This document shows positions 12,942 through 47,276 of a stretch of 64,000 nt of DNA, one piece after another. Position 1 is the first letter of the stretch, and every line of letters starts with the position of its first letter. The notes under the pieces are model-generated. The model did not search any database and had not been told where the DNA came from. It worked only from the letters and a program-made list of their open reading frames with translations. The position numbers were made by a program, and so were the translations under genes. Source of the stretch: a virus (lineage: Duplodnaviria; Caudoviricetes); IMG/VR virus record IMGVR_UViG_3300001528_000621, positions 1 through 64,000 of that record; one strand, given 5' to 3'.

Positions 12942-13422
12942 TCTGAAATTAGATCAGAGTCTACAAGACGTAGAAGAACTCTTTAGAGTAAAAGATTTGT
13001 ACTGCGGAATTGTAGATTCTGATAGCTTAGAGGATACTTTACTGTCTATAGAAGCTTGTACTCAATTGTGTAGAGGTTCCAGGAAATACTACAATAGAGT
13101 AGTATTTTTAGACATGAAGAGATATTGTTCAAACACCGTTAAGCTTACTGATAACTTTTTTTCAAAAGACATTAAGGTTTTTCCTACAGACTTTGTAAGC
13201 GATGGAAACGGATTAAGCTTGACAGAAGAAGGACTTTATATGCTTAATACAGAGTGTTTTTGTGCAGGCTATGTAGCGTTACAGTATTTAGCAAACATTG
13301 AAGGACATTACAGGTTTAATGTAGGGTACGGTAGTGACTATGTTTCTTTAGATACAATACTACCGGTATTTATTTCTAGTAACGCTTTAAGTCTTAGTGC
13401 TATACCGTTTTTTGAGAAATGA
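12916..13422 (+). CDS. Short/degenerate member of the same family
   Basis: MKIALCLY and YNRVVFLD; lacks GQPR, only 168 aa. Confidence 0.4.
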   Translation: MKIALCLYNLKLDQSLQDVEELFRVKDLYCGIVDSDSLEDTLLSIEACTQLCRGSRKYYNRVVFLDMKRYCSNTVKLTDNFFSKDIKVFPTDFVSDGNGLSLTEEGLYMLNTECFCAGYVALQYLANIEGHYRFNVGYGSDYVSLDTILPVFISSNALSLSAIPFFEK

Positions 13423-14462
13423 GAATTGCTGTTTGTTTGTCAGGTCAACCTAGAGCTTTTAGAGCAGCTGCTAAAAACATATTAAAGACGTTTAGGAAAG
13501 AAGAAAATGTCCAGGTGGATTACTACATCTTTTCTTGGACAGATAATATAACACCGTACAGTCTCGAAAACATAAAACTGCAGGAAGATATAGTAGAGTT
13601 AGAGAGAGATCTTACAGAACTCTATCATCCTAAAAAACTTGAGATTAGGAGTGAGAAGGAAATAGATAAAGCTTTTGCATTCTTACCAGTGATACAGGAT
13701 GATTTTTATCAAATATATCATTTTGCTAGAGTACTATCGCTGGTTCCGAAAGACGAGGAGTATGATTGGTGTTTTTGGACAAGAATAGATAATTTTATGT
13801 TCAATTCGACCATAGACACCTATGAAGATTGGAAAGCTCCCAGACTAAACTACAAAACTATTCAGGTCTACAGCCAAGACAGTAGAAGTAATGATTTAAT
13901 ATACATGCCTATAAACGGAGATCGAGAAACACCGGTACACTACGCTAGCTGGGCTAGGTTTCAGCCTACCGCTATAGATCTCCTTTATGCAGGAAGGGTT
14001 GATGTTTTGAGAAATCTTTCTCTTAAGACATTTGTTACATATTTACGTGATATAGCTTTACTTAAACATGGAGATAAAAATTTTCTAGAGTGGTGGGTAC
14101 CCTATATTTGTACAATCTCTGGTATCGGAATTAGAAGCGTACCCTTTCTAGAAAACAATGAAGAGTTACAGTGTGGGGTATATAGGCAGGTTTTTGAAGA
14201 AGCTAATGTAAGTTTATATACAGCTCTAGGTTTCAAATTTTCGGATTTTGATAATTATTATAGACTCTATATGTTTGATATTACTTCTGAATATGTTCAG
14301 AAACTCTATGAACTATACCAAGCAGGTTATATTTTACCTCCTTTTACCACATCGGACAGTGCTGAAGCAGCGTCTTGGAGTAGAGCTAAAATAGAAGAAT
14401 ATATCAACAATCCAACTGAAAAGAGGAAGGTAAAAATACCGAAAAAACAAGATATACTATGA
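13419..14462 (+). CDS. Putative glycosyltransferase, IAxCxxGQPR family
   Basis: MRIAVCLSGQPR, VDYYIFSW, YDWCFWTRID. Confidence 0.55.
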   Translation: MRIAVCLSGQPRAFRAAAKNILKTFRKEENVQVDYYIFSWTDNITPYSLENIKLQEDIVELERDLTELYHPKKLEIRSEKEIDKAFAFLPVIQDDFYQIYHFARVLSLVPKDEEYDWCFWTRIDNFMFNSTIDTYEDWKAPRLNYKTIQVYSQDSRSNDLIYMPINGDRETPVHYASWARFQPTAIDLLYAGRVDVLRNLSLKTFVTYLRDIALLKHGDKNFLEWWVPYICTISGIGIRSVPFLENNEELQCGVYRQVFEEANVSLYTALGFKFSDFDNYYRLYMFDITSEYVQKLYELYQAGYILPPFTTSDSAEAASWSRAKIEEYINNPTEKRKVKIPKKQDIL

Positions 14463-15472
14463 AAATAGCAGTGTGCCTATCAGGTCAACCTAGAGCTTAT
14501 AAAGCTGCAGCTCGAAGCATTCTAGAAACCTTTAGAAATACAAAAGATATTCAAGTGGACTTTTATATTTTCGCTTGGACAAATAATACCTCCTATACAA
14601 CCCCTAATTGTGATGACGTTCTTCACGACATGGAAGGATTGAAGAGAGACTTAATCTCAATGTATCATCCTAAAGGAATAAGGGTAGAGGACGAAGAGGA
14701 AGTAGCGAAGATTTGTGGAGTTATTCACCCCAAAGTTACTGCAAACGCATATAACTTCTTCCAGAACTACCATATGATATCTTCAATTAGTATAGCTTTG
14801 GAGACAGGAGGGTATGATTATTATATTTGGACCAGGATAGACATGCTTTTTTATAATTTCTCGGGAGAGAGATACAATGCTCCGAACATTAACGTAGGAA
14901 CGTTACGTAGATTGTATGAACAGCCTTGTCATGTGCTCTATAATGTTGGTGAAAAATTAAGACTTCCTGCATGGTCAACGTATTTACCTAATTTTTTGGA
15001 TTTTCTATACTTCGGTAGGGAATATACATTTAGGTTAATGAGAGAGACCTTGATGAACACGTTCTTCAAACTTCTGACATATGAAGATAGGTTTACAGAA
15101 GAAGACAGAAATATTCGACAGAGTAGGTTTGCTTGTCCATATCTAGAGAACGACATTCCTTTATGGGCTTTTGAACATCAAATTGGACTGTATACTGTTC
15201 CTGATTTATTTGAAGAGAACAGTCACATGAAAGTCTTAAAGCAGTGTTATGTAGACGCTGGAATAGACTATTACGACAGGAAGGATTTTCTTTTTGCAGA
15301 AAGCTATCCTTGCTTATATCTCTACAAAAACATAACAACGGACATTATTAAAAAATTACGAATTCTGTATGGAGAAGGTAAGATTTTACCTTTCTTCCAA
15401 AAGACAAGATGGGAAGAAACACACCCGATAACAGCAATAGAAATGCGAAAAGCTTTAGTAGAGTATGAGTAA
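14459..15472 (+). CDS. Putative glycosyltransferase, IAxCxxGQPR family
   Basis: MKIAVCLSGQPR, VDFYIFAW, YDYYIWTRID. Confidence 0.55.
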   Translation: MKIAVCLSGQPRAYKAAARSILETFRNTKDIQVDFYIFAWTNNTSYTTPNCDDVLHDMEGLKRDLISMYHPKGIRVEDEEEVAKICGVIHPKVTANAYNFFQNYHMISSISIALETGGYDYYIWTRIDMLFYNFSGERYNAPNINVGTLRRLYEQPCHVLYNVGEKLRLPAWSTYLPNFLDFLYFGREYTFRLMRETLMNTFFKLLTYEDRFTEEDRNIRQSRFACPYLENDIPLWAFEHQIGLYTVPDLFEENSHMKVLKQCYVDAGIDYYDRKDFLFAESYPCLYLYKNITTDIIKKLRILYGEGKILPFFQKTRWEETHPITAIEMRKALVEYE

Positions 15473-16430
15473 AGTAGCAGTTTGCTTTTTTGGACAGCCT
15501 AGATCCTTAGATTTTTGTTCAGGAATACTAAAGACTGTTTTTGAAAGAGGAGGAAAAAACGAGGTGGACTACTTTATTCATTCCTGGAATGAGTGTAGCT
15601 ATGGAACGGGTTGGGGAGATGTAGATGAAAAATTTAAGATAGAAGAGGTAACAGAAAAACTAAAGCTTCTTTACAACCCTAAAAATATTCTTGTTGAGAA
15701 TCCACATACTCAAGGGGAATTCGAAGAGGAAGATTACATGTACAGTGTGCTTTCTGTATACTACTCTTTATGTAAAAGTATAACAATGAAGAGAAAATAT
15801 GAGAAAGAACACAAGTTTAGGTACGATTTTGTTATAGTTAGCCGGTTAGACCTGGGTGTGTATCCTTGTGAAAATTTAGAGGAATTTTGGGACCAGTACG
15901 ACTGGGATGATCCAGAGTTTCTCTTTCCATACGAAATAAAGACAACAGGAGGGCCAAACCCAATATACGCTACAGACTGTCCAGAGCACGGTACTCATAC
16001 TCAGATAGATTTGATTTATCTTTGTAGGTCTAAATGTGCAGACCTATTGGCCGGAATCTACAGATGGGCTCATGCTACTGGATCTTCTTGGGATTTTTCA
16101 CCCTCCTATAGAGATTCTTCTGGGTTCAGAGCTCTATACAACTTTAGGACTATGGGTCCAGACATAGTTTTATATAAGTTCCTAGCTAAAGAAGGTCTCT
16201 TTACGGGTTTGCAGTATATTGGAAACTTCTTTCCTGTGAGAACTGCTGTAGATGAGTACGACTTAGATCCGACTGATTATAAAACAAGAAAAGCTGTATG
16301 TAAATATTACAACGGATTTAAACCATATGAAGGAAGAGCTTGGGATGTACAGAATTTAGGCAAAGTTTTAGTAGAGAACGGAATTATTGAGGAAAAAGAT
16401 ATTCCAAAACCAAAGAACATCGTAGTATGA
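15465..16430 (+). CDS. Putative glycosyltransferase, IAxCxxGQPR family
   Basis: KVAVCFFGQPR, VDYFIHSW, YDFVIVSRLD. Confidence 0.55.
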   Translation: MSKVAVCFFGQPRSLDFCSGILKTVFERGGKNEVDYFIHSWNECSYGTGWGDVDEKFKIEEVTEKLKLLYNPKNILVENPHTQGEFEEEDYMYSVLSVYYSLCKSITMKRKYEKEHKFRYDFVIVSRLDLGVYPCENLEEFWDQYDWDDPEFLFPYEIKTTGGPNPIYATDCPEHGTHTQIDLIYLCRSKCADLLAGIYRWAHATGSSWDFSPSYRDSSGFRALYNFRTMGPDIVLYKFLAKEGLFTGLQYIGNFFPVRTAVDEYDLDPTDYKTRKAVCKYYNGFKPYEGRAWDVQNLGKVLVENGIIEEKDIPKPKNIVV

Positions 16431-17344
16431 AAGTAGCAGTGTGTCTGTTCGGACAACCTAGAGCTTGGAAGATAGCTTCTCAGACATTAAAGGAAATATA
16501 CAAAGAGGAAGAGGTAGATTTCTATGTTCATACTTGGACTGAAGATGATAATCTCTATTTTGACAGGTTCAATGTCACCCATAGTAGAGAGAAACTAGAA
16601 AGAGAAATAATTGAAGTATATCATCCTAAAGATCTCATAATAAATGACCGTAGTCGTGTAATGGAGCAAGAATGTAGAGATTTACCAGAGTTTGATGGTA
16701 AAACCTACACAAGAGGTCTCTGTCAAATGTACTCTATGTCTAAATCTATAGAAATGTGTATAGATTCAGAGATAGGGTATAACCTTGTAGTAGCGTGTAG
16801 GCTTGACACGTACATGTCACCGGGAGGAAAGCTAAAGATACCAGAAAGCCCTTTCAAAGACTGTAATAGAGTTCTTTGGATACCTAACTGTCATGAACCC
16901 TACTTTTCTATTGGAGGAGAAACTCAGATATCAGATATACTCTATATTATGACTTTACCTGCAGCTAAGATTATATCTGAAGAATTCTTTAATTTTGCTA
17001 AGTTAAGGTATAAGTATCTCGTAGAAAAGGATAAGACCATACCTCTTGAGGCCCCGTATCCGGATCATCTTTGTCCCTATGTTTTTCTTGAAGGAACGTT
17101 AATGCCTTTTTTAAGTTTTGTATGTATTCTACCTGTTTGCGGTGGAAATTTAGGGATGTATGAAGGTTACATCCGAATACTTTATCCGAACTGTACAGGT
17201 CTTGCAGATTATCTTTATTCTACAGATTTAAATAAGGTAAATAAAGTGGTTCACTATTTAGATACGTACCTTACTTTTGAAAATAAAGGTATATCTTCTG
17301 AAGAACTTAAACAAAAATTTCTACAATATGATAATAGCTGTTGA
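16427..17344 (+). CDS. Putative glycosyltransferase, IAxCxxGQPR family
   Basis: MKVAVCLFGQPR, VDFYVHTW, YNLVVACRLD. Confidence 0.55.
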   Translation: MKVAVCLFGQPRAWKIASQTLKEIYKEEEVDFYVHTWTEDDNLYFDRFNVTHSREKLEREIIEVYHPKDLIINDRSRVMEQECRDLPEFDGKTYTRGLCQMYSMSKSIEMCIDSEIGYNLVVACRLDTYMSPGGKLKIPESPFKDCNRVLWIPNCHEPYFSIGGETQISDILYIMTLPAAKIISEEFFNFAKLRYKYLVEKDKTIPLEAPYPDHLCPYVFLEGTLMPFLSFVCILPVCGGNLGMYEGYIRILYPNCTGLADYLYSTDLNKVNKVVHYLDTYLTFENKGISSEELKQKFLQYDNSC

Positions 17345-20497: not shown

Positions 20498-20590
20498 ATG
20501 ACAGAGAAAGAAATAATAGTAGCAGTTATGCAGGACATTGCAGATGCTATCATGGCAACAGTACCACAAAATTCAACCGAAGAAGAGTAA
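20498..20590 (+). CDS. 30-aa acidic peptide MTEKEIIVAVMQDIADAIMATVPQNSTEEE (not in ORF track)
   Basis: ATG 20498 after an A-rich leader, TAA 20588-20590, 6 nt before the next ATG. Confidence 0.55.
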   Translation: MTEKEIIVAVMQDIADAIMATVPQNSTEEE

Positions 20591-20596
20591 AGAATT

Positions 20597-22207
20597 ATGA
20601 AAGGAGTATTAATAGGTTCAGATTTGATGTATAGGCAGGACGGAAGTCTTGTACCGATTGAGATAAATACTAACGTAGGTTGGGATGTTACGAACAGGAT
20701 GGAGAGAGAAGAAGATATGTGGGATTTTAGTTTTCTAAGATCTTACATTAAGGAACATAACATAACAGACATATATCTTGAAGGTCAGATTCAAAGAATG
20801 AAGAATTTCTGGCCAGAGGACATGGGTGCAGAGGTTCATGTAATCACTAAGGAAGAAATGGATGAATCTACTGACGAGTCTGAATATCATCTTTACATTA
20901 GGTCTGCATATAGTGATGAAGCTTATGTAGATAGTTTCTGTAGAGATAAGGTTAACTTCTTGAATGCTATTCAAAATCTTAGTTTCGGTTGTGAATATCT
21001 TCTAAAGACTTCTGGAGGATTAGTAGGAGACATTACAAAGGTAGAAGATAACGGAAAGCTTCCAAACTTCTTGGTAAAGTATAGATACCCAAACTATAAT
21101 AAGAGTAAGTATCCGCTTGCAATTAGGTTTGATAATGTAGAGAAGTTGAAGAGCTGGGCAGAAGCGAATCTAGAAGAGGATTACTTCATTATGCCGTTCT
21201 ACTACGATGTAGATAATCTTTACAAAGCAGAGGGAGAAGAGAATTCAAGAATTAAGCTTATAAGGAACTGGAGTCTTTACATCGCAAATGATGAAGGAAG
21301 TCTAGATTCTGTTTATGTAGCTTCATATACAAAGCTTTCTGCAGAGATCGATGAGAGTAAGATAGAGTGGAATGAAGATGGAACGTGTAAAGACGAGGAA
21401 TCTCTTCATAGAATGATTTCATCTGCTCTTTGGACTTTAGCAGACAATCTAGATGTACTCTTGGAAGCTAATGACGTAGTCTTGATGGAGGATGATACTT
21501 GGAAAGAAGCATCTGAGTTGAAGACAGGGTTGAAAGTAAAGGCTGTTACGATTCCGACTTCTGGAACGGTGGATATTCACAAGAGTGTAGAAGACTATAA
21601 CGTAAGTTTCGAGGAACTAGTTGCATCTTCAAGTTATACAATTAATGAGATTAAGGTTGTTCATAAGGTGGAAGGATGGGTTAGTGAGACAGTCTTGAAT
21701 TTCACTGATGGAACAGATTGGTTTGATTCTGATGCATCATCTTATCCGGTTCTTGATCCGAAGGATCAGACAGTAATGTTCAAGAAAGTCGGAACTATAG
21801 AAGCGGGTGACAAAGTCATCTTAATGGAAGCAGGTGCAACAGAACTAGAGAAACCAACATTTGTAATAAGAGAGGTAGAGAGTACGAGTAAGAGAAGAGT
21901 ATTGCAGAAAGGTTACGCGATAAGCTTGGACGGAAATCACTTGTTCTTGTCTAAGACTTCAGCGGACGCGCAGGCATACATCTCTATAGAACATAATTCT
22001 GTCTCGGACAAATCATCAAACACATGCTACATATTGTTTTCAGACTCAAAGTGTTCAGAATACGCTAATACGGTTTACCTAGACCCCTCTACATCTCGTT
22101 GCCACAGTATGCTAGGTCCGTGCACTGTCGAAGGTTCATGTATTTTAGGGCAGCCATGCTTTACTCCTAGTGCTTTATCTTATCTTATAGGAACCTTGTA
22201 CAACTAA
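20597..22207 (+). CDS. Circularly permuted ATP-grasp-like domain + Hint (intein-like) domain + variable C-terminal module (cassette A, 69 aa, 6 Cys)
   Basis: N-terminal IGSDLMYRQDGSLVPIEINTN (D...ExN); Hint-like blocks LLEANDVVLMEDDTWKEASELKTGLKV, IEAGDKV, YAISLDGNHLF, terminal HN followed by S. Confidence 0.7.
   Translation: MKGVLIGSDLMYRQDGSLVPIEINTNVGWDVTNRMEREEDMWDFSFLRSYIKEHNITDIYLEGQIQRMKNFWPEDMGAEVHVITKEEMDESTDESEYHLYIRSAYSDEAYVDSFCRDKVNFLNAIQNLSFGCEYLLKTSGGLVGDITKVEDNGKLPNFLVKYRYPNYNKSKYPLAIRFDNVEKLKSWAEANLEEDYFIMPFYYDVDNLYKAEGEENSRIKLIRNWSLYIANDEGSLDSVYVASYTKLSAEIDESKIEWNEDGTCKDEESLHRMISSALWTLADNLDVLLEANDVVLMEDDTWKEASELKTGLKVKAVTIPTSGTVDIHKSVEDYNVSFEELVASSSYTINEIKVVHKVEGWVSETVLNFTDGTDWFDSDASSYPVLDPKDQTVMFKKVGTIEAGDKVILMEAGATELEKPTFVIREVESTSKRRVLQKGYAISLDGNHLFLSKTSADAQAYISIEHNSVSDKSSNTCYILFSDSKCSEYANTVYLDPSTSRCHSMLGPCTVEGSCILGQPCFTPSALSYLIGTLYN
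21968..21998 (+). repeat. Shufflon-like repeat R1
   Basis: GCGCAGGCATACATCTCTATAGAACATAATT, encodes AQAYISIEHN. Confidence 0.95.
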
Positions 22208-22683
22208 CTTATGACTATATACAGGTCTTGAGAAAATGAATCTTGAATATACAAGGTGCCTTCACATGTTCGAGGTCTAATGGTCAACTCTGTTTCTGCC
22301 GCTATATCGCCGCCGCTTGAATAAATTTCCATTCTTGAAACAGGCGGAAGAGCCTGTGTTCCGGCAAAAGAAAGATCTACCCAAAGTGCTATGTCTGGAT
22401 CGCTTAGATCGTTGGCTGTAATACCTATATTATATACCAAGGACCAGTCAGAACTAGTTGCCTCTATGTTCTCTAAACTTAAATTGTAAATAGTACCATC
22501 ACTTAGAGTTAATTGTACTATTGACGAAGTTTTGTCTAAACCTTGTTGTCCTGTACCGTTCTGTATAGTGAGAAAAACCTGTATAACTTCGTATACTACT
22601 TTATCTGGTGCTACACATTCATCTTCGGTGCCGTCGCAAGTGATATCATACGAATTATGTTCTATAGAGATGTATGCCTGCGC
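22204..22683 (-). other. Silent cassette B: AQAYISIEHN + 149-aa module (SYDITCDGTEDECVAP...DLYIVIS)
   Basis: Open frame from R2 through the ORF-track fragment 22204..22440; in-frame TGA directly upstream of R2; its stop overlaps the stop of cassette A. Confidence 0.85.
22653..22683 (-). repeat. Shufflon-like repeat R2
   Basis: Exact reverse complement of R1. Confidence 0.95.
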
Positions 22684-22733
22684 TCATGGAAATTTCAACA
22701 ATATTACATAACTTACGAGAAATAAGTTAAAAT

Positions 22734-23033
22734 ATGCATATAGACTTTAAGGAAATTTTATCGGCTTGGGCAGCTAAGATCAATCCGACACCGGATCAGA
22801 AAGATCTAGCTCTAAGAAGAGCAAAAATTTGTGATGAGTGTGAATTTCTTGGAGAAGTTCTCAAAGACAAGAAAATGACACAATATTGCAAAGAATGCGG
22901 CTGTGTCATTGGTGCTAAGATTTATAGCTACAAAGAAGGTGCTTGTCCGAAGAACAAATGGGACAGAGTAGATTGTGAATTTAGAAATTCAAAAGCGATT
23001 AAAGTGCTTAAACATCCGAGATCGATCGTATAA
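22734..23033 (+). CDS. Small Cys-rich, probably Zn-binding protein
   Basis: CDEC...CKECGC...K...CPKNKW. Confidence 0.7.
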   Translation: MHIDFKEILSAWAAKINPTPDQKDLALRRAKICDECEFLGEVLKDKKMTQYCKECGCVIGAKIYSYKEGACPKNKWDRVDCEFRNSKAIKVLKHPRSIV

Positions 23034-23043
23034 GCGCTATATT

Positions 23044-23089
23044 ACATAAAGAAACCCGGAATCTTGATCGATTTCGGGCTTTTTTATGT
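23044..23089. terminator. Putative bidirectional intrinsic terminator
   Basis: CCCGGAATC/GATTTCGGG stem with A-rich 5' and T-rich 3' flanks. Confidence 0.6.
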
Positions 23090-23098
23090 GCATTATCT

Positions 23099-23129
23099 GC
23101 GCAGGCATACATCTCTATAGAACATAATT
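23099..23129 (+). repeat. Shufflon-like repeat R3
   Basis: Exact copy of R1. Confidence 0.95.
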
Positions 23130-23290
23130 ATGTTATTGATCCTGGTACGATGTCTAAGTGTGGTCCGGCATACTGTAACGGCCTCATCTGCGAATGTGAT
23201 ACTAGTAACTGCTATCTAGACAGCACTACTGTTATTAACTGCAGTAGTGATGAATCTGTTTGTGCTAAGTATTTGTGTGTACAAACATAG
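23099..23290 (+). other. Silent cassette C: AQAYISIEHN + 53-aa module YVIDPGTMSKCGPAYCNGLICECDTSNCYLDSTTVINCSSDESVCAKYLCVQT (8 Cys)
   Basis: Translated by hand from R3; TAG at 23288-23290; absent from the ORF track. Confidence 0.85.
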
Positions 23291-23402
23291 TTTTATGTAT
23301 GATAGAAGTTACCTGCTATGTCTTGTCTGGGTGTTGATATAAGATAACCACCGTACAGGTGTTTCCGGCAGTATAGTAACTATCGTTAATAATTTCTCTT
23401 CT

Positions 23403-23660
23403 TTAAGATTTAGACACTTCGCAAGAAGATTCTCTATAGCTTTTATAACCACCTAAAATAGTACAACCTGTTGGAGTTCCATTGTGACATGTATCCGTCA
23501 AATCCGGTATAGAGGAGCAGTTAGCCGGTGTTGTACAGTTCTCTCTCAAAACGTACTCTCGTGGACCAACGCAATTCTCGTTTGAGTAACGTACGTATAT
23601 AACTACTTCTGAGACGCCAATAATATTAGAATTATGTTCTATAGAGATGTATGCCTGCGC
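23403..23660 (-). other. Silent cassette D: AQAYISIEHN + 75-aa module SNIIGVSEVV...SSCEVSKS (6 Cys)
   Basis: Corresponds to ORF-track 23403..23720 from the repeat onward. Confidence 0.85.
23630..23660 (-). repeat. Shufflon-like repeat R4
   Basis: Exact reverse complement of R1; identity extends to 38 bp (21963-22000 vs 23628-23665). Confidence 0.95.
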
Positions 23661-23784
23661 GTCCGATAAAGGGGAAATTTCGTGGAAATCAGCGCGTAAA
23701 TCTTGTTTCGAAGCCCGCAAATCTATTTATCTCAGAGTATATTCAACTTATGTATTCCTGAAATTTAGACAAATAGCGCGAGCA

Positions 23785-25861: not shown

Positions 25862-25893
25862 CCCCGGAGTTGTCTAAGCTTCCGGGGTTTTTT
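25862..25893 (+). terminator. Putative intrinsic terminator
   Basis: CCCCGGAG/CTTCCGGGG stem + T6. Confidence 0.7.
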
Positions 25894-25941
25894 ATGTCAA
25901 GGTCTATAATTATATTCAATAAACTTAGGCGTATTAAGATC

Positions 25942-27666
25942 ATGGACATTAAGATTGAATTGGATAGGATTGCTAAAGAGCACTCCGGAGGTTACAGTAA
26001 GATTATAAAATCCCAATATCCGGAAGAATTTATAAAAATTTCAGAGTCATACGAAGGGGTTAATTTCGGGGAAAAACTCTGGCTTTATGTTTACGGGCCT
26101 GAAAAGTCTATTTGTCCAGTTTGTGGAAAAAAGAAAAAATTCGGAAAGTATTCAACAGGGTATCCGGGAATAACTTGCAGTAGAGCTTGTACTTTTAAGC
26201 ATTTAGGTATATCCTCTAATTTTCAATTACCTTCAGCTGTTATAAAGAAGAGAGAAGCTATACTACGAGGCTGCTATAAGAATGTCGGTAAAAAAGCTAA
26301 AGAAACACATTTAGCTAAATACGGGGACTATAAAGAAGCTATTAAAAAGGGAAAACAGACTAGACTTCTTCGATATGGTTCTGAAAATTATAACAACCGA
26401 CAAAAGCAGAGAGAAACCTTTGAAGAGCGATACGGAGTAGGGGGAAGGACAGAAAAGCAGAAAAAAGCTCTTAAGGAGTTGATAGAAAAGAAAGGGTTTG
26501 GTACAGAAACACACAAAAAGTGGTTAGAGAATCAAGGAGTTACGAATGCTTCCCAATTAGAATCTGTCAAAACTAAAAAACATCAGAAGCGCGTTCATCA
26601 AGATTTTGAATATCTAAGGGAGTTTGCTGAAAGTAGAGACTTAAAACCTTTATTCTCAGAACAAGATTTCAAAGGATACGTTGAAGGAGATCTTGAATTT
26701 CATTGCAATCGGTGTGGAAACGACTTTAAGTATGGTAGAGTTCAGAGTTCCTACCTAAGGTGTCCTATCTGCTACCCTAAGAGAGCGTATACTTCTTATG
26801 AGCAGCAAGAAGTTCAGAATTTTCTAGAAGATCTCGGCATATCTTTTGAGGTAGAAAATCAAAAGATCATAGGAAAAGAGCTAGACATTTATATACCGGA
26901 TAAGAAAATAACTATAGAGTATGATGGACTCTATTGGCACTCAGCTCAAACCGGTACAACGTCGGAAAGACATTTAGAAAAGACAGAACTTTGTGAGAAA
27001 AAGGGGATTAGGTTGATTCACATCTTTGAAGATGAATGGCTATTTAAGCGGAAGATTGTAGAAAGTAGGTTAAAAACAATCTTAGGGGTAGAAACAGATA
27101 GGACCTATGCTAGAGAGTGTAAAATTAAGAAAATAGACTCTAAAACCTGTAATGATTTTTTAGAAAAATACCATATTCAGGGAGCAGATAGAGCCTCTAT
27201 CAGGTACGGACTCTATTATCAAGAGGATCTTGTAGCTGTAGAGACATTTGGAAACCTAAGAGCAGCTTTAGGTCAAAAGCGAAAAGAAGGTGAATATGAA
27301 TTACTTAGGTTTTGTTCAAAAACACAGGTTGTTGGTGGATTTTCTAAGCTTTTAAGATATTTTATAGAGGAACATAAACCCAAGCGAATAATCTCGTATG
27401 CAGACCGGAGGTGGTGTAACCTAAAAGGACACACCGTTTATGAAAAAGCTGGATTTAGGTTAGTTTCCGAAGGAACACCTAACTACTGGTATTTTAAGAG
27501 CGATGTTCTTAGGCGTTATCATAGGTTTTCGTTTAGGAAGAGTGTACAAAAGAAAGTATTGGAGAAGTTTGATGAAAGTTTAACAGAACAACAGAATATG
27601 GGCAGGAATAAGTACCTGTGGATCTGGGATTGTGGTTCGTACAAATTTCAGCTAGACTTAGAATAG
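25942..27666 (+). CDS. Hef-like homing endonuclease-type protein (Zn fingers + PD-(D/E)xK-like domain); start likely ATG 25942
   Basis: CPVC, CNRC/CPIC, ELDIYIP..KITIEYDGLYWHS, GIRLIHIFEDEW, ISYADRRW, WDCG. Confidence 0.7.
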   Translation: MDIKIELDRIAKEHSGGYSKIIKSQYPEEFIKISESYEGVNFGEKLWLYVYGPEKSICPVCGKKKKFGKYSTGYPGITCSRACTFKHLGISSNFQLPSAVIKKREAILRGCYKNVGKKAKETHLAKYGDYKEAIKKGKQTRLLRYGSENYNNRQKQRETFEERYGVGGRTEKQKKALKELIEKKGFGTETHKKWLENQGVTNASQLESVKTKKHQKRVHQDFEYLREFAESRDLKPLFSEQDFKGYVEGDLEFHCNRCGNDFKYGRVQSSYLRCPICYPKRAYTSYEQQEVQNFLEDLGISFEVENQKIIGKELDIYIPDKKITIEYDGLYWHSAQTGTTSERHLEKTELCEKKGIRLIHIFEDEWLFKRKIVESRLKTILGVETDRTYARECKIKKIDSKTCNDFLEKYHIQGADRASIRYGLYYQEDLVAVETFGNLRAALGQKRKEGEYELLRFCSKTQVVGGFSKLLRYFIEEHKPKRIISYADRRWCNLKGHTVYEKAGFRLVSEGTPNYWYFKSDVLRRYHRFSFRKSVQKKVLEKFDESLTEQQNMGRNKYLWIWDCGSYKFQLDLE

Positions 27667-28307: not shown

Positions 28308-28940
28308 ATGAAGATTCACTACTTTTACAAAATAACTAACCTTCTTAACGGAAAATACTACTTAGGGGTTCATACTTCTACTCTCTCACCAGAGAAAGAT
28401 AATTACTGGGGATCAGGACCAGCAATTAAAGCTGCTATTAAGAAGTACGGAAAGCAGAATTTTAAGAAAGAGGTCTTAGAAGTGTTTAACTCTTCAGAAG
28501 ATGCTTTTAAGTATGAAGCAGAACACATAACCTTGAAAGAGGTTCAAGATCCAATGTGCTACAATATGCAGCTAGGAGGACTAGGAGGTACAGAAGGAGC
28601 TATCTTTATGACAAACGGTACGGATCATGTCAGGATTTTACCGGAGTTTGAAGAAGAGTACAGAAACAAGGGGTACTCAAGATTGCAAAAAGTTCATTCA
28701 GCTGAAACTCTTCAAAAAATGAGAGAATCTCACAGGGGTTTGAAGAGATCTAAAGAATCTTTAACAAAAGCAGGTGCATCAATGAGGCAGCTCGTCTGGG
28801 TTAAAAAAGAGGATCAAGAACTTAGGATTCACAAAAGGGAGTTAGAGTCTTATCTGGATCAAGGCTATGTTCGAGGTCGCTTATCGTCTACGAGCTTAAA
28901 GATAGGTCAAACCTTAAAAGCACGTCATCAAAATTCTTAG
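28308..28940 (+). CDS. GIY-YIG (Seg-like) homing endonuclease
   Basis: YFYKITNLLNGKYYLGVH, YWGSG, KKYGKQNFKKE, CYN; NUMOD3-like HSAETLQKMRESH. Confidence 0.85.
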   Translation: MKIHYFYKITNLLNGKYYLGVHTSTLSPEKDNYWGSGPAIKAAIKKYGKQNFKKEVLEVFNSSEDAFKYEAEHITLKEVQDPMCYNMQLGGLGGTEGAIFMTNGTDHVRILPEFEEEYRNKGYSRLQKVHSAETLQKMRESHRGLKRSKESLTKAGASMRQLVWVKKEDQELRIHKRELESYLDQGYVRGRLSSTSLKIGQTLKARHQNS

Positions 28941-46199: not shown

Positions 46200-47276
46200 A
46201 TGCCAGCAGCTAAAAAAGAGATCATACAGAGAGCTACAGCTGAACAGCAACAGAAGTTCAGCTTAGCTTCTTTTAAGAAGAAAAAAGGCTTTGATTCAAA
46301 TTCAATTAAATTTAAGCCGCAGTCCTGGATACCACTTTCAAAGGCTTGGCAGGATGTTACTTCACTGCCGGGAATACCTCAAGGACACATTACTCTCCTT
46401 AGGGGACATTCGGACACAGGAAAGAGCTCAACCCTGTTAGAGTGTGCAGCTTCTTGCCAAAGACTGGGTATTTTACCGGTTTTTATTATAACGGAGATGA
46501 AATGGTCTTGGGACTTCGCTAAAAAGATGGGAGTTCAGGTAAAGGAGGTTATTGATAAGGAGTCCGGTGAGGTTGTAGATTATGATGGATTTTTCTTGTA
46601 CGTAGATAGGGGGTCTCTCAATACAATTGAAGATGTAGCTAACTACATAGGAGATCTTCTTGACGAACAAGCTAAAGGAAAGTTGCCTTATGATCTTTGC
46701 TTTTTGTGGGACTCTGTAGGATCTGTACCTTGTGAACAATCCGTAAACTCAAACAAGAACAACAATCAATGGAATGCAGGGGCAATGTCAACACAGTTTA
46801 GTGGTTGGATCAATCAGAAAATACCTCTCTCTCGAAAGGAATCTTCGCCCTACACCAATACCCTGGTGTGTATCAATAAGATATGGGTATCGCCTCCAGA
46901 GTCGTTTTTAGGTCAGCCAAAAATGAATAATAAGGGTGGAGAATCCATGTACTACGATTCGAGTGTTTGCTTCACATATGGAAACATCTCCAATGCAGGT
47001 ACCTCTAAGATAAAAGCCGCTGCAGGAGGAAAAGCGTTTGAATTTGCAAAGAGAACAAAAATCTCTTGCGATAAAAACCACATAACGGGCGTTCAATCGG
47101 TCGACTATATTGTTATGACACCTACCGGATTTATTCATAACGACAAGAAAGAGATCGATGAGTATGCAAATAAGCATAAAGAGGAATGGAAAAACATTAT
47201 TGGTACGGACAGCTTTAGTGTAGATATTGAACCGGTAATGGAAGAAACTCCGAACAATATTATAGATGATGATTAG
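46200..47276 (+). CDS. uvsX: RecA/UvsX-like recombinase
   Basis: GIPQGHITLLRGHSDTGKS, WDSVGS, INK, KGGE, KNHI. Confidence 0.85.
   Translation: MPAAKKEIIQRATAEQQQKFSLASFKKKKGFDSNSIKFKPQSWIPLSKAWQDVTSLPGIPQGHITLLRGHSDTGKSSTLLECAASCQRLGILPVFIITEMKWSWDFAKKMGVQVKEVIDKESGEVVDYDGFFLYVDRGSLNTIEDVANYIGDLLDEQAKGKLPYDLCFLWDSVGSVPCEQSVNSNKNNNQWNAGAMSTQFSGWINQKIPLSRKESSPYTNTLVCINKIWVSPPESFLGQPKMNNKGGESMYYDSSVCFTYGNISNAGTSKIKAAAGGKAFEFAKRTKISCDKNHITGVQSVDYIVMTPTGFIHNDKKEIDEYANKHKEEWKNIIGTDSFSVDIEPVMEETPNNIIDDD

Follow-up and report, generated by a model that had tools for sequence, protein, structure and literature searches.

What machinery could replace the C-terminus of a phage protein with that of a silent cassette, in a genome where no invertase is recognised? 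The question is raised by a locus of the IMG/VR virus record IMGVR_UViG_3300001528_000621 (Duplodnaviria; Caudoviricetes), a 187,848-bp genome with direct terminal repeats that is rated 100% complete. The stretch analysed, hereafter the window, comprises positions 1-64,000 of this genome. It contains a 536-residue open reading frame (20597-22207, plus strand) made of a constant part, residues 1-467, and a C-terminal tail, followed by further tails that are preceded by the same short repeat in one or the other orientation. From the letters of the window, an original prediction had described a shufflon-like locus in which inversions at these repeats would swap the C-terminus of an enzyme-Hint fusion. 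The analysis presented here leads us to propose that the locus is probably a C-terminus-swapping array with four sites and two slots, flipped by the homologous recombination of the phage itself.

Architecture of the repeat array

A scan of the window retrieves exactly four exact copies of a 31-nt core, in + - + - order, where shuffled sequences are expected to give none; no further copy exists in the whole 187,848-bp genome. All four cores translate into AQAYISIEHN and then continue, in phase, into a different open frame. The sites and the tails that they introduce are the following:

21968-21998, plus strand: core R1, the expression site; encodes AQAYISIEHN and the first base of the tail
22653-22683, minus strand: core R2, with an in-frame stop codon directly upstream
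23099-23129, plus strand: core R3, an exact 31-nt copy
23630-23660, minus strand: core R4, with its flank the inverted-repeat partner of R1
21998-22207, plus strand: tail A, 69 residues, six Cys; fused to the gene and currently expressed; stop codon at 22205-22207
22204-22653, minus strand: tail B, 149 residues, predicted all-beta; silent, tail-to-tail with A; stop codon at 22204-22206
23129-23290, plus strand: tail C, 53 residues, eight Cys; silent
23403-23630, minus strand: tail D, 75 residues, six Cys; silent

The upstream open frame is joined to tail A only, and the stop codons of A and B share 2 nt. For the outer pair, R1 and R4, the perfect inverted match reaches 38 bp (21963-22000 versus 23628-23665), inside a longer arm of 44 nt with 95% complementarity. 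The original prediction had pointed out each of these features, namely the position and orientation of the four exact repeats, the outer 38-bp pair, the in-frame AQAYISIEHN followed by tails of 69, 149, 53 and 75 residues, the fusion of A alone and the overlap of the A and B stops; all were found again by scanning and translation. Apart from the copies in the array, the 188-kb genome contains no exact inverted repeat of at least 22 nt, other repeats of that length being direct. The centre of the core is occupied by a palindrome of 8-10 bp, TCTATAGA in the window and CTCTATAGAG in the related contig L092 described below.

Tails B, C and D have no start codon and no evident promoter. The minus-strand cassettes B and D are exceptions in the 64-kb window, where the convincing genes all lie on the plus strand. 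On the 5' side of core R4, the minus-strand frame is open up to a TTG at 23720, which delineates a 105-residue open reading frame (23403-23720, minus strand) that is probably not expressed. Its residues ahead of the core (...ISPLSD) faintly echo those of the constant gene (...SKTSAD), and this resemblance suggests that the R4 flank arose through an inverted duplication of the 3' end of the constant gene.

Rearranged cassettes in sister strains

The 90%-identity cluster of the target protein comprises three members, from the window and from two contigs, L092 and L090. The ENA source metagenomes are ERZ15610153 and ERZ15610578. L092 is a 189,780-bp ENA contig with a coverage of ~20, obtained from a different source and independent of the IMG/VR assembly. 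It has all four sites, again in + - + - order, and each is bordered on its outer side by the position-specific flank seen in the window. Between the window and L092, the constant gene (97.5-97.7% identical), the central segment that carries a 99-residue gene (98.5%) and the right flank (98.4%) have the same orientation. The R1-[A/B]-R2 segment of the window (21957-22683) corresponds to positions 11504-10778 of L092, where it lies reversed in the R3-R4 slot (89.8% identity over a gapless 727 nt). Tail A, expressed in the window, is silent at the R4 site of L092 (61% amino acid identity), and tail B, found at the R2 site in the window, occupies the R3 site of L092 (84% amino acid identity). The A/B segment of L092 has the position and the orientation predicted from an R1xR4 inversion followed by an R2xR3 inversion. 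The remaining slot differs in content, with C/D in the window and B'/F in L092.

L090, a short contig of low coverage, stops within a cassette. Its constant gene is 97.4% identical to that of the window and 97.7% to that of L092. Its DNA is identical to that of the window through the core and then switches abruptly to a fifth tail, E, after which a convergent minus-strand open frame is observed. L090 is a probable carrier of an array. Three near-identical strains thus express three non-homologous tails (A, B' and E), and eight to ten different tails are counted across them.

The original prediction had proposed that cassette order be compared in related phages. With the A/B segment of L092 inverted and in the other slot, this comparison bears out the shufflon-like rearrangement and strongly supports the view that DNA has been rearranged at the repeats between strains. 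Switching may also occur within one population.

Exchange among the cores and selection on the tails

All four cores of L092 carry one same synonymous A-to-G change relative to the four cores of the window. As the same mutation can hardly have arisen four times independently, the cores must have exchanged sequence, by gene conversion leading to concerted evolution, after the window and L092 diverged.

Ratios of nonsynonymous to synonymous substitution rates (dN/dS) were calculated by the Nei-Gojobori method between the window and L092. They are low for the constant part (0.05) and for the 99-residue gene (0.12). The ratio is 1.58 for tail B (27 nonsynonymous and 5 synonymous differences) and reaches 5.98 for tail A (35.8 nonsynonymous and 2.2 synonymous differences), in which every Cys is nevertheless kept. 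A binomial estimate made by hand gives p ~0.003 for the nonsynonymous excess in tail A. The silent tail copies are open and align without indels between the two genomes. Taken together, these comparisons indicate that the cassettes are maintained by selection and evolve adaptively. Such adaptive evolution in turn requires expression of the cassettes, at least intermittently.

The tails fall into two classes, short ones with a Cys framework (A, C, D and E) and longer ones predicted to be all-beta (B, B' and F). An AlphaFold2 (AF2) model of tail B is all-beta and of low confidence (predicted local distance difference test, pLDDT, 61); Foldseek relates it to jelly-roll, carbohydrate-binding module and TNF-like structures, all as non-significant matches (E>=0.02). 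The tails have no similarity to those of more distant family members. Among the latter, long tails (500 to >1,200 residues) follow the Hint junction in P0147, P0149-P0152 and P0124. Of the six long-tailed members that were scanned, three have carbohydrate-binding domains of the BACON or viral-BACON type. By analogy with these distant members, there are hints that the tails are binding modules and that the hosts are Bacteroidota. A diversity-generating retroelement was also considered and was rejected, as the genome contains no reverse transcriptase (PF00078).

Fold and family of the target protein

Pfam and PHROGs gave no match for the 536-residue protein or for any of the four tails. No homologue of the constant protein was detected by tblastn in 50,697 phage GenBank records, and megablast found no DNA relative of the 20-26 kb region in these records. 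A sequence-profile search of the PDB returned sub-threshold Ataxin-AXH, intein and BIL matches only. With no Pfam model at threshold and no representative in the 50,697 phage records, the protein family is previously undescribed. In metagenomic proteins, an exhaustive HMMER search assembles a family of 363 clusters at 50% identity, 147 of them with E<=1e-30. An alignment of ~120 homologues is conserved through a motif ending in IEHN (residue 467) and diverges completely right after it; the tails range from 33 to >1,000 residues and most are Cys-rich. In the AF2 model, built with 60 homologues, residues 1-467 are confidently predicted (pLDDT 84; predicted template modelling score, pTM, 0.80) and the tail is disordered. 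The constant part is divided as follows:

20597-21457, plus strand: residues 1-287, circularly permuted ATP-grasp-like domain (Foldseek, atlas matches)
21458-21997, plus strand: residues 288-467, cleavage-only Hint domain ending with E465-H466-N467 (VIA, Foldseek)

It is fold search, and not sequence profiles, that settles the Hint assignment. With residues 288-467, Foldseek retrieves Hint folds including BIL2, inteins and hedgehog (best E 7e-7, i.e. ~1e-6; template modelling score, TM, by target 0.64-0.74), and VIA-align superimposes 143 residues on BIL2 and inteins (Z 13.4, rmsd 2.8 Å). In the latter alignment, Leu288 of the model corresponds to intein residue 1 and N467 to the terminal intein Asn. 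Weak, sub-threshold Pfam matches of the Hint type (Hint, Hom_end_hint, PT-HINT, Intein_splicing) are seen in 25 of 60 members, and PT-HINT is detectable by Pfam in atlas clusters of related viral proteins.

Residues E465, H466 and N467 are invariant in the 60 homologues, and the block-F His, H448, is conserved in 51 of them. Position 1 of the Hint domain (residue 288) is occupied by Leu in the window and by L, K or M across the family, with no Cys, Ser or Thr nucleophile. Column analysis of the 60 members found no conserved His at 369-383 that would correspond to the TxxH of block B. The +1 residue after N467 varies freely and can be Pro, Ala, Glu or Tyr. Because of the missing position-1 nucleophile, the missing TxxH and the unconstrained +1 residue, the domain is best described, on the sequence evidence, not as an intein but as a cleavage-only Hint domain, for which C-terminal cleavage alone is plausible. 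By analogy with intein chemistry, this cleavage would proceed by Asn cyclisation at N467. The core ends one base past the codon of this Asn. Hence the original prediction was right to place the repeat on the C-terminal junction, N467 being equivalent to the terminal Asn of inteins, and its designation of that junction as an intein one has to be amended.

Residues 1-285 match eukaryote-type glutathione synthetases in Foldseek (E ~4e-5, TM by target ~0.3) and CP_ATPgrasp and GSP_synth clusters of the atlas (TM 0.51-0.55). Residues E22 and N24 (forming an ExN-like motif), R102, K118, K161 and R223 of the ATP-grasp-like domain are invariant. From the model, an enzymatic activity of this putative domain is plausible. 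The view of the protein as an enzyme-Hint fusion held, with a Hint fold at Z 13.4 preceded by an ATP-grasp-like N-terminal domain in the AF2 model.

Mechanism of cassette exchange

Six-frame searches with hidden Markov models, in which positive controls were found, were run on the complete genome at E<=1. They gave no candidate for Phage_integrase (PF00589), Resolvase (PF00239), Recombinase (PF07508) or DEDD_Tnp_IS110 (PF01548), very divergent or host-encoded enzymes being outside the reach of such a search. The genes next to the array are all accounted for. The genome encodes a protein of the general recombination type, as follows:

46200-47276, plus strand: UvsX-like recombinase (phrog_97, E 2e-16; RecA Pfam, 25 bits)

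A Pfam match to UvsY is absent from the genome. The UvsX-like protein is a candidate enzyme for the exchange at the cores. T4-type phages are known to shuffle modules at short repeats without a dedicated recombinase, and such exchange is detectable at ~1e-5 per virion in one infection (PMC2839356). The host Xer/dif system was also considered as a candidate and was rejected: the cores match E. coli dif, the sole reference used (Bacteroidota dif was not compared), at 13-15 of 28 positions, no better than random windows.

Because no site-specific recombinase was found in the complete genome, homologous recombination of the phage appears the most likely machinery; it is ranked first because the cores are identical, have undergone gene conversion and are the sole inverted repeats in the genome. 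The proposed mechanism would run as follows. The 31-bp repeat encodes the last strand of the Hint domain and would end at the scissile Asn, so that a crossover between oppositely oriented cores would join another silent tail in frame. An R1xR2 exchange would install B, an R1xR4 exchange would install D, and R3xR4 followed by R1xR4 would install C. UvsX-type recombination would act on the perfect 31-38-bp inverted repeats at low frequency, both inside a genome and between relatives that infect together. Once translated, the Hint domain would cleave at N467 by Asn cyclisation and free the tail. If the tails serve as binding modules in an arms race, each swap would alter binding specificity.

Four points weigh against this proposal. 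Firstly, inversion alone cannot interconvert the window and L092: since, of the two genomes, only the window has C/D and only L092 has B'/F, cassettes must also have been replaced, presumably through a double crossover within the cores on either side, and the L092 arrangement could also derive from cassette exchange between co-infecting phages. Secondly, no protein joining the constant part to B, C or D is found in the 90%-identity cluster, which has three members only. Thirdly, 31 bp is short for efficient homologous recombination of the T4 type. Finally, the sharp edges of the repeats and the 8-10-bp palindrome of the core would also suit a site-specific enzyme.

The last point leads to the alternative of a classical programmed shufflon, flipped at high frequency by a divergent phage or host invertase, for instance a Bacteroidota tyrosine invertase, that would cut within the core. 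The convergent cassette pairs between inverted sites, a geometry of the R64 type, are what such a system would show, as are sharp repeat boundaries with a palindrome (TCTATAGA or CTCTATAGAG) at the core centre. The likely host phylum, pointed to by a tail sheath nearest to that of a Flavobacterium phage and by the BACON tails of the relatives, is moreover rich in invertases. We nevertheless regard a programmed shufflon as unlikely, given that serine, tyrosine, large-serine and DEDD recombinases gave nothing at E<=1, that the one gene inside the array, the 99-residue one, also occurs in array-less relatives, and that the core is no closer to E. coli dif than the background. In addition, conservative exchange alone would not be expected to spread a tail-side substitution to four cores.

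Less probable still is an evolutionary archive of cassettes, in which the repeats would serve as anchors of homology when related phages, infecting together, rarely exchange cassettes, without meaningful switching in a clonal lineage. The two complete arrays do differ in content and order, eight to ten tails are distributed over three strains, and the PeSL-type modular shuffling of T4-like phages works in this manner (PMC2839356). However, the inverted, convergent pairing of the cassettes is unneeded for exchange between genomes, whereas it is exactly what in-frame intramolecular inversion needs. Machinery acting between genomes would act within one genome too, and the four identical cores of each genome imply frequent exchange among copies.

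It is very improbable that the silent cassettes are inert relics, i.e. decaying pseudogene fragments flanked by repeats with no current role. The missing start codons and promoters of B, C and D would fit this view, but the 149-codon frame of B is open and gapless at 84% amino acid identity between strains, the silent L092 copy of A is intact with all its Cys and a dN/dS of ~6 instead of ~1, and four identical cores with a concerted change are incompatible with decay. Lastly, an assembly artefact in the repeats or in the cassette order is hardly credible in spite of the metagenomic origin of the data and of the short, low-coverage L090 contig ending inside a cassette, since two independent assemblies (187,848 bp and 189,780 bp) agree on the four-site architecture and on orthologous flanks, and a 31-bp repeat is shorter than the usual final k-mers of assemblers. 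Homologous recombination at the cores remains the preferred explanation.

Neighbouring genes and genome setting

The genome is that of a T4-like myovirus. Downstream of the array, the order is tail sheath, homing endonuclease, tail tube, SegE-like GIY-YIG endonuclease and baseplate hub; the best cultured match of the sheath (44%) is in Flavobacterium phage vB_FspM_immuto. A cluster of sugar-modifying and radical-SAM genes lies upstream. Three features are close to the target gene:

22734-23033, plus strand: gene of the central segment, 99 residues with six invariant Cys (phrog_13558, E 3.3e-9)
23055-23089, plus strand: intrinsic-terminator-like hairpin after the 99-residue gene
20498-20590, plus strand: acidic micro-ORF (short open reading frame) of 30 residues with EEE at its C-terminus, immediately 5' of the constant gene

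The 99-residue protein is 54-99% identical in relatives, with its six Cys invariant, and is more conserved than the product of the family gene; it is possibly zinc-binding. In all relatives examined, many of them without an array, its gene adjoins the family gene; it is located downstream in most of them and upstream in the P0014 loci, one of which has two copies. Because it is kept beside the family gene in relatives without an array, the 99-residue gene is assigned, from this conservation, to the function of the target protein and not to DNA flipping; it is not a recombinase gene.

An acidic micro-ORF (30-34 residues, ending in EEE(EE)) is also kept upstream of the ATP-grasp-Hint gene in L092, L008 and L010, with 43-93% identity. 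Small acidic proteins with a C-terminal Glu are acceptors or carriers for some ATP-grasp ligases, such as those of the RimK and LysX/LysW types. Since acidic, Glu-ended proteins serve some ATP-grasp ligases, the product of the micro-ORF may, by analogy, be a substrate of the fused ATP-grasp-like domain. A tentative extension of the model, which we consider possible but doubtful, is a phase variation that needs no site-specific recombinase, in which every flip, made by the recombination machinery of the phage, would bring in another fast-evolving binding module, and the module, once freed, might be re-ligated by the permuted ATP-grasp domain onto a carrier or virion protein. The 30-residue EEE peptide and the 99-residue Cys protein are candidate carriers for such a ligation. 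Such a system would represent a new route to diversify and attach surface or effector modules of phages.

Other features of the genome can be mentioned. Two homing-endonuclease genes (25870-27666 and 28308-28940) flank the tail-tube gene; one product belongs to phrog_3339 and has a PD-(D/E)XK-like MTES_1575/Vsr region, the other is the SegE-like GIY-YIG enzyme. Both are present in L092 and absent from L007, L008 and L010, where the sheath gene adjoins the tube gene. At 13419-17344, four tandem paralogues of 305-347 residues all start with M(R/K)(I/V)AVC(L/F)(S/F)GQPR; they have no Pfam family and a weak phrog_13607 match, and they lie in a cluster of sugar, radical-SAM, NTP-transferase/kinase, Ribul_P_3_epim and SIS genes. 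Finally, an AT-rich motif of 25-53 nt (...AAAAGCTATTATCTTTAGCTTAGAAATTAAAAACAAA...), which resembles the PeSL-type early promoter cassettes of T4-like phages, is repeated many times in direct orientation at genome positions 102,996-123,650 and at 74,007. The genome therefore has further short, recombination-prone repeats, all of them direct.

Distribution and significance of the array

Motif and k-mer scans in IMG/VR, ENA and Logan found extra copies of the junction only in the window and in L092 among 83 loci of the family. In relatives with 44-60% identity, one tail is present, along with the 99-residue gene, before or after the family gene, and the tail sheath. A search of IMG/VR for an exact 24-mer of the core gave no match, and a degenerate junction pattern, run on IMG/VR and JGI metagenomes, retrieved mostly chance matches in unrelated proteins and only two family members, both single-copy. 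Judged by this distribution, the array arose recently and in this lineage alone, as an elaboration of a widespread family whose post-Hint tail was already hypervariable.

DNA-inversion switches of phages are known for tail fibres, where they are accompanied by an invertase. The present system is distinguished by its T4-like carrier, by the absence of a recognisable invertase, and by its target, an undescribed and widespread phage protein family in which a cleavage-only Hint domain follows an ATP-grasp-like one and precedes a hypervariable tail that is under strong positive selection. No integrase being found in this T4-like phage, a lytic lifestyle is suggested. If the proposal is correct, the locus would show that phase variation can be driven by general recombination between short inverted repeats located in coding sequence. 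The four tails form a ready allelic series and the junction a precise point for swapping modules, which together would then give a handle on the function of the family.

Comparison with known systems

A systematic survey of gene-altering inversions lists no Hint or intein target (PMC9881135). In the R64 shufflon (pilV, sfx and Rci), as here, repeats in both orientations stand at the junction between the constant and variable parts of one gene, the cassettes are start-less convergent pairs, and single and nested inversions serve one expression site; the R64-type and phage-inversion geometry put forward in the original prediction is thus matched, with convergent pairs between inverted sites. Conversely, neither Rci nor another tyrosine recombinase was found here, the target is an ATP-grasp-Hint protein and not a pilus adhesin, the carrier is a T4-like phage in which no integrase was found and not a plasmid, and the central segment houses a conserved partner gene. 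The sfx sites of R64 are short and non-identical, whereas the four 31-bp cores are identical. Of the features that define a shufflon, the cognate recombinase was not found, and the number and orientation of the repeats, the in-frame cassettes and the rearrangement between relatives are all observed.

The Gin/G segment of Mu, the Cin system of P1, the Min system of p15B and the Rin shufflons of prophages (PMC6109161) also swap the C-terminus of a phage protein by inversion, with silent inverted cassettes beside the expressed gene, and the switch probably changes phage binding. Those systems have an adjacent invertase and tail-fibre or receptor-binding targets; here, there is no invertase domain, no tail-fibre signature, and a predicted self-cleaving Hint junction.

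With HINT polymorphic toxins (PMC3482391), the locus shares a Hint domain placed directly before a hypervariable C-terminal module, and nearby silent cassettes that replace this module by recombination at a conserved junction. It differs by its ATP-grasp-like N-terminus and by its location in a phage tail region; no tail contains a Pfam toxin, no immunity open frame lies between the cassettes, and no secretion or trafficking domain is seen. Polymorphic toxins have cassette-immunity units in the same orientation, whereas the pairs are inverted and convergent here.

As for the Hint domain itself, bacterial intein-like (BIL) domains are among the top matches, statistically tied with inteins (Z 12.8-13.4), in particular BIL2 of Tetrahymena BUBL (PDB 6y75, 2lwy). 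BIL domains also combine a Hint fold with a terminal His-Asn and perform autoprocessing instead of splicing. The phage domain departs from them by Leu, Lys or Met at position 1, by the lack of TxxH and by its fusion to a permuted ATP-grasp-like domain.

Finally, PeSL shuffling (PMC2839356, PMC4122927) likewise takes place in T4-like phages at short-repeat joints without a dedicated recombinase, and PeSL-like direct repeats are present at 103-123 kb of this genome. However, PeSLs lie between genes, are direct repeats of the promoter-terminator type and move complete open reading frames, whereas the repeats of the present array are coding and inverted, and would swap, in frame, part of a protein.

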